Assembly: GCF_041886205.1 (NCBI RefSeq) | Contig: NZ_CP169029.1 | DNA length: 64,000 nt | Origin: Escherichia coli | GTDB lineage: Bacteria; Pseudomonadota; Gammaproteobacteria; Enterobacterales; Enterobacteriaceae | Direction: 5' to 3' (one strand) | In this document: positions 40,371 through 42,075 of the stretch, one piece after another | How the letters are laid out: every line of letters begins with the position of its first letter | How positions within the stretch are numbered: position 1 is the first letter of the stretch | Program-made: the position numbers and the translations under genes | Notes under the pieces: model-generated | Told to the model about the DNA's origin: nothing | Seen by the model: only the letters and a program-made list of their open reading frames with translations | The model's database searches: none

Positions 40371-40514
40371 GTGAAAAAGTTTCGATGGGTCGTTCTGGTT
40401 GTCGTGGTGTTGGCTTGCTTGCTGCTTTGGGCGCAGGTATTCAACATGATGTGCGATCAGGATGTACAATTTTTCAGCGGAATTTGTGCCATTAACCAGT
40501 TTATCCCGTGGTGA
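40371..40514 (+). CDS. mgrB: PhoQ-inhibiting small membrane protein MgrB
   Basis: 47 aa ([47 protein letters not shown]) with GTG start; below the track length cutoff; GTTTA direct repeats upstream resemble PhoP half-sites. Confidence 0.85.
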
Positions 40515-40588: not shown

Positions 40589-40876
40589 ATGAACGAAGTT
40601 GTAAATTCAGGCGTGATGAACATTGCGTCTTTGGTTGTATCGGTGGTGGTTCTTCTTATCGGGCTCATCTTGTGGTTTTTTATCAATCGTGCCAGTTCTC
40701 GGACTAACGAACAGATTGAACTGCTTGAGGCGTTGCTGGATCAGCAAAAACGTCAAAATGCACTGTTACGTCGTTTGTGCGAAGCAAACGAACCTGAGAA
40801 AGCAGATAAAAAGACCGTTGAGAGTCAAAAATCGGTTGAAGACGAAGATATTATTCGTCTGGTCGCCGAACGATAA
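40589..40876 (+). CDS. yebO: small membrane protein YebO
   Basis: 95 aa ORF with one N-terminal TM segment. Confidence 0.85.
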   Translation: MNEVVNSGVMNIASLVVSVVVLLIGLILWFFINRASSRTNEQIELLEALLDQQKRQNALLRRLCEANEPEKADKKTVESQKSVEDEDIIRLVAER

Positions 40877-40890
40877 TCCTTCCTCAATCT

Positions 40891-40920
40891 TGAGTAACCC
40901 CGTCGTTGAAGGGTTACTCA
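40891..40920 (+). terminator. perfect 10 bp stem-loop after yebO (no clear T-run)
   Basis: TGAGTAACCC-10 nt loop-GGGTTACTCA. Confidence 0.4.
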
Positions 40921-41544
40921 ATTCATCCTGATTATACGCACTGCCATGGTGCAACTGCTTCAAATTAAAACTCTGGTCTGACTTCAAATAATTATCATAT
41001 TATTTATTTGCGTAACGGGATATCAGAAAAAGATATTTTCCTCATTAATTTATTAGGATGTTTACATCGGATTTGTGATTAAGCGTGGTATTATTTATTA
41101 GCGAAACGTTTCTCTCTTGATTTTTTGCTCATTCATCAATTTTTCTTATTTTAAATTTTCAATCCCTTTGGGGATTGACTTCTCTTTAGGGTAATTGATA
41201 GCCGTTAACTGACTGTTTTATGAGAAAAAGTGATATAACTTTTTATTCATTGCATAGCAAAAAATGTGATATTGCACGCACTATGTAATAACTTCTCCCA
41301 CTGGCCTGGAACAACTGAACTTATTGAACTATGTTAGAAACTACGCCAGTTTAAGTATCTGCCTGAACTGGCAAGGTTAAGCACAATGATATATCGGCGC
41401 GTATTCCGTTGCATAAGTGTGCAAAAAAAGTGGAAGACGTATCGAGATTTGTGCGTCTGATCGAGACATGTTTAAAAATGGCTTGCCATAATTAACGTTG
41501 TATGTGATAACAGATTTCGGGTTAAACGAGGTACAGTTCTGTTT

Positions 41545-41688
41545 ATGTGTGGCATTTTCAGTAAAGAAGTCCTGAGTAAACACGTTGACGTTGAATACCG
41601 CTTCTCTGCCGAGCCTTATATTGGTGCCTCATGCAGTAATGTGTCAGTTTTATCTATGTTATGCCTGCGGGCGAAGAAAACAATCTAA
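41545..41688 (+). CDS. yobF: small protein YobF
   Basis: 47 aa ([47 protein letters not shown]), 12 bp upstream of cspC; below the track length cutoff. Confidence 0.8.
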
Positions 41689-41700
41689 GGAATTTTTCAA

Positions 41701-41910
41701 ATGGCAAAGATTAAAGGTCAGGTTAAGTGGTTCAATGAGTCTAAAGGTTTTGGCTTCATTACTCCGGCTGATGGCAGCAAAGACGTGTTCGTACACTTCT
41801 CCGCTATCCAGGGTAATGGCTTCAAAACTCTGGCTGAAGGTCAGAACGTTGAGTTCGAAATTCAGGACGGCCAGAAAGGTCCGGCAGCTGTTAACGTAAC
41901 AGCTATCTGA
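41701..41910 (+). CDS. cspC: cold-shock-domain protein CspC
   Basis: 69 aa; RNP motifs KGFGFI and VFVHF. Confidence 0.96.
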
Positions 41911-41956
41911 TCGAATCCACTGATCTGAAGTGTGAATACGCTTCAATCTCGCTATA

Positions 41957-41982
41957 AAGCCTCGTCGAATGCGAGGCTTTTT
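41957..41982 (+). terminator. intrinsic terminator after cspC
   Basis: AAGCCTCG-loop-CGAGGCTT followed by TTTT. Confidence 0.75.
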
Positions 41983-42075
41983 ACTATGCTTTATCTTCGC
42001 TCCTGGCGTTCGGATATTTGCCCGCCGCGTGATTCGCGTTACACTTGCGGCCTTTAGTATCCTGCCGGAGTTGTC

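Follow-up and report, generated by a model that had tools for sequence, protein, structure and literature searches.

The intergenic region between yebO and yobF in Escherichia coli is probably a two-promoter control region of yobF-cspC

Results

Gene order and composition of the gap

The window analysed here, a 64,000-nucleotide stretch (64 kb) of an E. coli chromosome (contig NZ_CP169029.1), carries on its plus strand mgrB (40371-40514), yebO (40589-40876), a gap, yobF (41545-41688), cspC (41701-41910) and rlmA, in this order, and Pfam matched YebO, DUF2527/YobF and, in cspC, the cold-shock domain. The gap between yebO and yobF is 668 bp long (40877-41544) and has an overall GC content of 0.355. 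The initial annotation had described about 615 bp without a credible ORF between the two genes, and we likewise found the gap and no credible gene within it. Its starting point at 40930 is sensible because the first approximately 49 bp of the gap are taken up by the terminator hairpin of yebO (mgrB-yebO), a perfect 11-bp inverted repeat on the plus strand at 40890..40921 (TTGAGTAACCC-N10-GGGTTACTCAA). In the Term-seq data of Adams et al. (2021), the primary 3' end of yebO lies at about 40925 (K-12 1908212/3(-)) in all three conditions. In the K-12 RefSeq record the gene order is identical, the gap is 669 bp long, 1 bp longer than in the window strain, and no features are annotated in it. The stretch was found in 5,423 of the 5,426 complete E. 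coli genomes, at an identity of 95-100%.

The stretch had also been called AT-rich, correctly so, as the GC content is 0.27-0.32 across 40950-41300. This spacer core is mostly unconserved filler, and outside the conserved islands described below its identity to other genera is 0.26-0.29. The yobF spacer is flagged 'HNS' in the table of the RpoD genomic SELEX study (PMC3946193).

Conservation across Enterobacteriaceae

Using RlmA as an anchor, 80 loci were fetched across Enterobacteriaceae; 73 gaps were compared and 68 gaps were aligned. The order yobH-mgrB-yebO-gap-yobF-cspC is general across the loci. The gap, in most genera 570-760 bp long, reaches about 1,535 bp where yebO is directly followed by a 330-aa MBL-fold gene; about 525 bp of non-coding DNA still precede yobF there. 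The MBL-fold gene fills the corresponding position in Lelliottia, Leclercia, Kosakonia and others. The idea that the E. coli gap is a decayed remnant of it was rejected, as tblastn found no trace in the window; weak candidate matches, of the C-terminal 15-25 codons only, were obtained in three short-gap Enterobacter species.

Conservation beyond E. coli was found, in the form of islands that stand out from a background identity of about 0.27. The strongest comprises the proximal promoter P1, the 35 bp upstream of it and the 26-nt leader (41447-41544, mean identity 0.90 across 67 gaps). The others are an operator look-alike (41096-41116, 0.74), the block adjoining it (41117-41158, 0.51), the distal promoter P2 (41306-41345, 0.62) and a palindrome that we call site B (41406-41426, 0.61). 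The P2 motif TTGAGCTATGGTAAAAAAG begins 219-224 nt before the ATG of yobF in nearly all genera and the site B motif GCATAAnTGTGC starts exactly 134 nt before it in most genera, the sequence between these two motifs being free to vary.

Start sites and promoters

Published start sites and 3' ends were placed on the window by means of the flanking sequences printed in the tables, and the region does contain transcript ends, namely 5' ends (41343 and 41519) and a 3' end (41420). The two 5' ends come from Kim et al. (2012), who give yobF starts 26 nt and 202 nt 5' of the ATG (PMC3415461). The proximal start, P1, falls on 41519 (249 reads, 26-nt leader; PMC3415461); it was found independently by 454 sequencing and 5' RACE, and the start at -26 is also the one quoted in a sigma-S ChIP-seq study. 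The distal start, P2, falls on 41343 (K-12 1905817(-), 107 reads, 202-nt UTR; PMC3415461), and the same table holds no start site between 41343 and the yebO start region. The EcoCyc/RegulonDB entries yobFp1 and yobFp2 agree with these positions, -26 (P1) and -202 (P2) relative to the yobF ATG, and a 2026 paper cites the promoters of the operon as yobFp1, yobFp2 and cspCp8.

The P1 block (41447..41544, plus strand) consists of TTGCCA at 41483-41488, a 17-nt spacer, GATAAC at 41506-41511, the start site at 41519 and the 26-nt leader with its Shine-Dalgarno sequence. The hexamers are those given in the RpoD genomic SELEX paper (PMC3946193), which reports more than one RpoD peak for the yobF spacer. 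P2 (41307..41335, plus strand) reads TGGAAC-17-TATGTT, and its consensus in other genera is CTGGAcG..TTGAGCTATGGTAAAAAAG. Both promoters have a hexamer spacing of 17 nt and 7 nt from the -10 element to the start site, and both promoters are conserved across genera. At 41341, two bases 5' of the P2 start, the window strain has C where K-12 has A.

The C at position -13 gives P2 a sigma-S-like appearance, which agrees with the preference of E-sigma-S for the yebO-yobF intergenic probe in an in-vitro array. It is likely from these two observations that P2 is sigma-S-preferred, P1 and P2 being unseparated in the array data. The array signal, 'IG1905616_1906284-f', could mean a minus-strand transcript. 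The 'antisense of cspC' probe gives an equal ratio, however, and we therefore tentatively read both signals as sense P2/P1 transcript, arising via the labelling chemistry.

Two further promoter candidates were set aside. A consensus scan called GAGACA-18-CATAAT at 41463-41492, which has no matching start site in the published tables and was consequently not counted as a promoter. A sigma-54 promoter or NtrC site behind a published RpoN/NtrC SELEX peak was sought by eye, and no GG-N10-GC is present at P1 or P2. The GGTGCA of the conserved block near the operator look-alike is an NtrC-like half-site only.

The P2 leader and the RNA end at 41420

The region had been proposed to be one long regulatory leader of yobF-cspC. 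This holds for its last 202 nt when transcription starts at P2, or for its last 26 nt when it starts at P1, and does not hold for the whole 615 nt. The P2 leader (41343..41544, plus strand) is 202 nt long and has a 5' hairpin at 41345-41372. A similar arrangement is seen in Salmonella 4/74, for which Tn5 insertions in the 5' UTR of yobF-cspC have been described 172 and 181 nt downstream of the annotated primary start site, so that the UTR is at least 182 nt long. Placed on the S. enterica locus of our set, this geometry fits a P2 leader of about 203 nt. The length of the leader is constant across genera while the sequence from +5 to +65 is variable. The full P2 leader folds with a z of -1.17. 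Among the orthologous leaders the mean is -0.95 and 5'-proximal hairpins are frequent; no common structure was found among them, and as the hairpin positions vary, no covariation test is possible. CyaR and OxyS have been reported to pair near the Shine-Dalgarno sequence of yobF.

Rfam RF01766 (cspA thermoregulator) matches 41525-41985 with 132.9 bits against a gathering score of 78. The likeness is carried by the cold-shock-domain coding sequence: the match starts 20 nt before yobF and its 5' part aligns poorly. Upstream of 41525, Rfam gave nothing beyond a chance-level match to a palindrome discussed below.

Term-seq also contains an orphan 3' end at 41420 (K-12 1907716(-)), present in the LB OD 2.0 sheet only, where it has 264,852 reads compared to 46,490 for the yebO terminator, about 5.7 times as many. 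No further 3' end is listed on either strand for K-12 1907600-1908199 (window 40938-41199 and 41237-41536). The 41420 end falls within the 3' arm of a weak hairpin, with an A-run after it. Taken together with the P2 start, it implies a putative 78-nt leader fragment (41343..41420, plus strand), the two ends of which come from different studies. The RNA that ends at 41420 is likely to have started at P2.

The initial annotation had suggested that the stretch could hide a small RNA, and this fragment is the sole candidate that we found. It is improbable, in our view, that the 78-nt RNA is a trans-acting sRNA that acts on other mRNAs in stationary phase. On one strand a mapped start and a mapped 3' end are indeed 78 nt from each other, the reads are abundant in relation to the yebO terminator, and the 5' stem-loop at 41345-41372 could stabilise such an RNA. 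However, the body of the fragment (41346-41405) is unconserved with an identity of 0.31, its fold is no better than that of shuffles (z = -0.39), Rfam gives no match, and the 41420 end is followed by GCAAAAAAAG and not by a Rho-independent terminator. In the accessible portion of its text, the Term-seq paper does not take this end further. The fragment resembles the 5'-UTR-derived RNAs of Adams et al. (2021), for example ChiZ and IspZ, in having a condition-specific 3' end within a 5' UTR, 3' of a start site. It differs from them in being putative, in lacking a terminator and a conserved body, and in having no known sRNA pairing site nearby.

Open reading frames in the gap

The only ORF previously listed here, on the minus strand at 41377..41583, had been dismissed as an artefact, and we agree. 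It exists (68 aa, GTG start), has no Pfam family and overlaps both the yobF start and P1. Its apparent conservation is explained by this overlap with the conserved promoter and leader DNA of yobF; in one compared locus (L027) the N-terminal 'conservation' ends where the conservation of the promoter DNA ends.

The suggestion that the stretch could hide a small protein was not borne out, as no conserved small ORF was found, and we give hardly any credence to the two possible candidates, a 22-aa ORF at 41220-41288 and a 24-aa ORF at 41386-41460. Both have ATG starts, and the latter lies within the transcribed P2 leader with a weak AAGG 9 nt upstream. The 41220 ORF, however, is without a Shine-Dalgarno site and is closed by a stop at its third codon in the other Escherichia species (ATGAGATAA), whereas the ATG at 41386 is missing in the other Escherichia species and in other genera. 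The sequence surrounding both is unconserved, and K-12 RefSeq annotates nothing there.

The palindrome at 41159-41178

A perfect palindrome, CAATCCC-TTTG-GGGATTG, had been singled out in the AT-rich tract. It is exact at 41160-41177 and extends to an 8-bp stem at 41159..41178 (TCAATCCC-TTTG-GGGATTGA). Such a palindrome is not rarer than expected by chance: of the dinucleotide shuffles of the gap, 30% have one or more perfect 7-bp stems with a loop of 3-8 nt, and the 64-kb window contains 60 such stems. Within E. coli no part of the gap varies more than the 61 bp surrounding the palindrome, where about one third of the genomes are at least 99% identical and 1,856 of 5,413 fall below 95%. All five genomes sampled from the classes below 95% carry CAATACC-TTTG-G(A/C)GATTG or worse (for example CAATACC..GCGATTG), in which at least two pairs are lost, uncompensated. 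The palindrome is missing from two other Escherichia species and from all other genera compared, where unrelated sequence is found, and the cross-gap identity of the segment is 0.27.

A function of the palindrome, whether as an intrinsic terminator, as a hairpin stabilising the 5' end of an unmapped transcript or as a protein-binding site, thus appears very improbable to us. The local fold has a z of -2.44, the stem lies directly 3' of the conserved promoter-like block, and with its T-rich tail CTTCTCTTTA it was called as a terminator, by the lenient scan only, with 4 GC pairs in the 8-bp stem. Against this, Term-seq shows no 3' end at 41159-41199 on either strand in LB 0.4, LB 2.0 or M63, the start-site map (PMC3415461) has no start nearby, the palindrome lies outside every mapped transcript, stems this good arise by chance, and the stem is disrupted without compensation or absent in the comparisons given above. 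As a CRISPR repeat the palindrome was rejected as well: its sole Rfam match, CRISPR-DR25, with E = 0.4 and 22.1 bits, stays below the gathering score of 36, and the repeat is present in a single copy only, without an array. We consider the palindrome a chance, strain-variable feature that is probably non-functional.

An operator look-alike and its adjacent block

Upstream of the palindrome, at 41100..41115, lies a LacI-family operator-like palindrome of the RbsR type, AGCGAAACGTTTCTCT, which is identical in 15 of 16 positions to the rbsD operator AGCGAAACGTTTCGCT as read from K-12, and which is the sole match to that operator within 3 mismatches in the 64-kb window. Both it and the RbsR operator of rbsDACBK are 16-bp palindromes centred on CG, and they share 13 contiguous bases (AGCGAAACGTTTC). 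The look-alike differs in having a degenerate right half-site (GTTTCTCT; in other genera GTTTTTAT) and in its position, as the rbsD operator sits just upstream of the rbsD start codon and the look-alike is 236 bp upstream of the nearest mapped start site (P2). About 63 loci, each of about 10.8 kb, have the core CGAAACGTTT exactly once, always approximately 390-465 bp ahead of yobF; it was not found in Klebsiella, Raoultella, Siccibacter or Intestinirhabdus. An alternative identity for the look-alike would be a Cra site (TGAAAC type).

Next to the look-alike, at 41121..41158 (plus strand), is the degenerate E. coli copy of a block that other genera conserve (GTCAT..TTTCATTATTTTGGTGCA, 45 nt after the operator start) and in which it is promoter-like on the plus strand there (TTGAGG-17-CATTAT). 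In the three Escherichia species compared the block has decayed, and its motif, exact in 29 gaps, is undetected within 4 mismatches in the window. On the plus strand the best promoter score falls repeatedly, in 18 loci, at +48 from the operator; a minus-strand candidate overlapping the operator, ATGACA-17-TATAAA, scores equally in some genera, leaving the orientation of the promoter ambiguous. A reading of the block as a Pho box was rejected, as it does not stand at the right distance from any -10 element and the E. coli sequence agrees at only 12 of 18 positions. The Kosakonia block, CTGTCAT-N4-CTTTCAT, matches 15 of 18 positions of the Pho-box consensus, which we treat as a lead only.

It is possible, though we think it doubtful, that 40926-41300 is a working regulatory input, either as a LacI-family site with a third promoter or as a distal site acting on P2. 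The invariance of the operator core in about 63 loci within otherwise unalignable DNA, its close identity to the rbsD operator and the fixed distance of 43-46 nt between operator and block would all fit such a role, and TTGAnG-17-CATTAT is the commonest best promoter match. The multiple RpoD SELEX peaks in the spacer (PMC3946193) and the recovery of rbsR and cspC mutants from one Salmonella succinate screen point in the same direction. However, no E. coli start site has been mapped in the upstream half, the block has decayed in the three Escherichia species, the operator is absent from the four genera named above, its distance from the P2 start would be unusual for direct repression and the orientation of the promoter is ambiguous in some genera. 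A search of the accessible literature found no paper linking RbsR or CytR to yobF-cspC, and RbsR SELEX is reported to give only 5 peaks.

Paired palindromes and their likeness to deoP2

Two further palindromes accompany P2. Site B (41411..41422) reads GCATAAGTGTGC and, with its flanks, GTTGCATA-AG-TGTGCAAA; in 49 loci it has the form GCAT-N4-(A/G)TGC and starts 132-134 nt ahead of the ATG, and this pattern is found off-site just 3 times in 66 kb of gaps. Site A is GCAT-N4-ATGC in other genera, 292-304 nt before the ATG in 22 loci, and is degenerate in E. coli, where the remnant TTGCATAGCAA is followed, within 41250..41280, by TGTGAtattgcACGCA, centred at -70.5 from the P2 start. TGTGAtattgcACGCA is a putative CRP-like site, which is better matched in Citrobacter than in E. 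coli. In most genera site A lies at about -92.5 from the P2 start, and site B lies at +74 from P2, which is -102.5 from P1, the distance from one site to the other being about 167 bp. These conserved palindromes are putative protein-binding sites.

Some features recall deoP2, the CytR/CRP-regulated promoter. Site B has TTGCA/TGCAA half-sites, its cross-genus consensus CGCATAACTGTG is identical in 10 of 12 positions to CGCATTACAGTG in K-12 deoP2, and the CRP-like site adjoins site A. CGCATTACAGTG lies in the CytR operator region of deoP2. In contrast to deoP2, where the half-sites are separated by N7, the spacing at site B is N4, and no tandem CRP sites bracket site B. The assignments of the sites to RbsR, CytR and CRP should be taken as leads and not as findings, as they come partly from likeness to consensus sequences.

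Discussion

It is likely, with a probability that we put at roughly 85%, that the gap between yebO and yobF is a compound two-promoter control region of yobF-cspC, and neither one long leader nor the place of a hidden gene. According to this interpretation, the mgrB-yebO transcript ends at the hairpin at about 40925, followed by approximately 380 bp of AT-rich DNA that belong to an H-NS-flagged spacer and are mostly unconstrained. This tract bears an old conserved module, the RbsR-type operator look-alike at 41100-41115 and then the promoter-like block that has decayed in Escherichia. P2, with its sigma-S-like -10 region, starts transcription at 41343 and gives the 202-nt leader. In stationary phase some of the RNA ends at 41420, inside the GCAT-N4-GTGC palindrome, most likely by processing or trimming of the P2 leader. 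P1 starts at 41519 and gives the 26-nt leader, near whose Shine-Dalgarno sequence CyaR and OxyS reportedly pair. Low-level transcripts could still exist, for example from near 41160 or on the minus strand.

The two-promoter control region is largely already known, and the small novelty of the present analysis is the RbsR-like operator, the paired palindromes and the RNA end at +78 from P2. A more far-reaching interpretation, which we regard as unlikely, is that anciently conserved, so far unrecognised sites in the spacer feed transcription-factor signals to the RNA chaperone CspC, namely the RbsR-type operator about 445-465 bp ahead of yobF and the pair of GCAT-N4-(A/G)TGC sites in a fixed helical register, with their CytR-like half-sites and, in Escherichia and Citrobacter, a CRP-like neighbour. 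If this were true, LacI-family repressors would wire yobF-cspC to the ribose and nucleoside status of the cell, and the succinate-growth phenotype shared by rbsR and cspC mutants of Salmonella could be explained. The 3' end at +78 within site B could then be a trace of the P2 leader being attenuated or processed in a regulated manner.

The result is mainly a negative one in that neither the palindrome nor the AT-rich tract is a hidden gene. As a global RNA chaperone, CspC affects the RpoS-linked stress response, the expression of PhoP-activated virulence genes in Salmonella, the use of succinate and fitness during colony ageing, and adaptive mutations recurrently hit the yobF-cspC locus. Knowledge of the two promoters, the 202-nt leader and the conserved site-like elements may therefore aid in reading mutations and IS insertions upstream of yobF.

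Transcription of the genes flanking the yebO-yobF gap can be followed from published K-12 data placed on the coordinates of the window. Besides the mgrB start site (around 40345, 26 nt before mgrB), yebO has a mapped start site of its own at around 40570, 19 nt before its ATG (PMC3415461), and therefore yebO is not merely a passenger of the mgrB transcript; the Term-seq tables (Adams et al. 2021) also contain 3' ends internal to yebO. On the other side of the gap, the published tables place a strong 3' end inside yobF at 41657 (K-12 1907479), 44 nt before cspC, and three weak start sites assigned to cspC, also inside yobF, at 41572, 41582 and 41589. Together, these ends suggest that the yobF and cspC cistrons are handled separately.

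The leader that starts at P2, the distal yobF-cspC promoter, keeps its length among most genera, as the distance from P2 to the yobF ATG varies by only about 3 nt. Its first ~65 nt (41343-41410 and the orthologous leaders) are constant in length and essentially unconserved in sequence. Downstream, cspC and rlmA are separated by 165 bp in Escherichia, whereas the distance is about 2 kb in Citrobacter, Enterobacter, Klebsiella and others (loci L004-L020 and many more), and these genera carry additional gene content between the two genes.

In Lelliottia, Leclercia, Kosakonia, Siccibacter, Phytobacter and some Enterobacter, a gene for an MBL-fold hydrolase-like protein of 328-331 aa is found directly 3' of yebO (positions 1111-2106 of locus L027; further loci L021, L029, L032-L036, L039, L040, L042, L043, L051, L064, L068, L069, L071, L072, L077, L080 and L081). 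In three Enterobacter species with a short gap, tblastn gave weak matches to the C-terminal 15-25 codons of this gene (E-values 0.025 in L025, 0.85 in L023 and 2.0 in L028), and these matches would fit a lineage-specific deletion. No remnant of the gene was seen in E. coli in a tblastn search against the window.

In the gap of Klebsiella spallanzanii (L059) there is an insertion of ~125 bp at roughly positions 60-190 after yebO, containing GTCCCCAGGAGCATAGATAACTATGTGACTGGGGTGAGCGAGCG, which we take to resemble an ERIC repeat element. Among E. coli genomes searched with the gap stretch, 13 lack most of it, and one strain, O125ac C 236-04A, has an IS1 insertion inside the gap (NZ_CP109924.1 2187771-2189228). 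According to published work, IS1 and IS5 hits in yobF-cspC are adaptive in ageing colonies.

A 20-nt direct repeat of 90% identity joins 40998-41017 (TATTATTTATTTGCGTAACG) with 41089-41108 (TATTATTTATTAGCGAAACG), and thus the left half of the RbsR-type operator look-alike (41100-41115) occurs in E. coli a second time, in degenerate form, 91 bp upstream. In K-12, the known rbsD operator is preceded at a distance of ~75 bp by a second LacI-type box (GTAAAACGTTTCGAGG, positions 345-360 of the rbsD region, L082). One strain, E. coli CRE1493 (L084), has a natural G-to-A change at the equivalent of 41108 in the otherwise invariant operator core (CGAAACATTT), and this variant would serve as a ready-made test allele.
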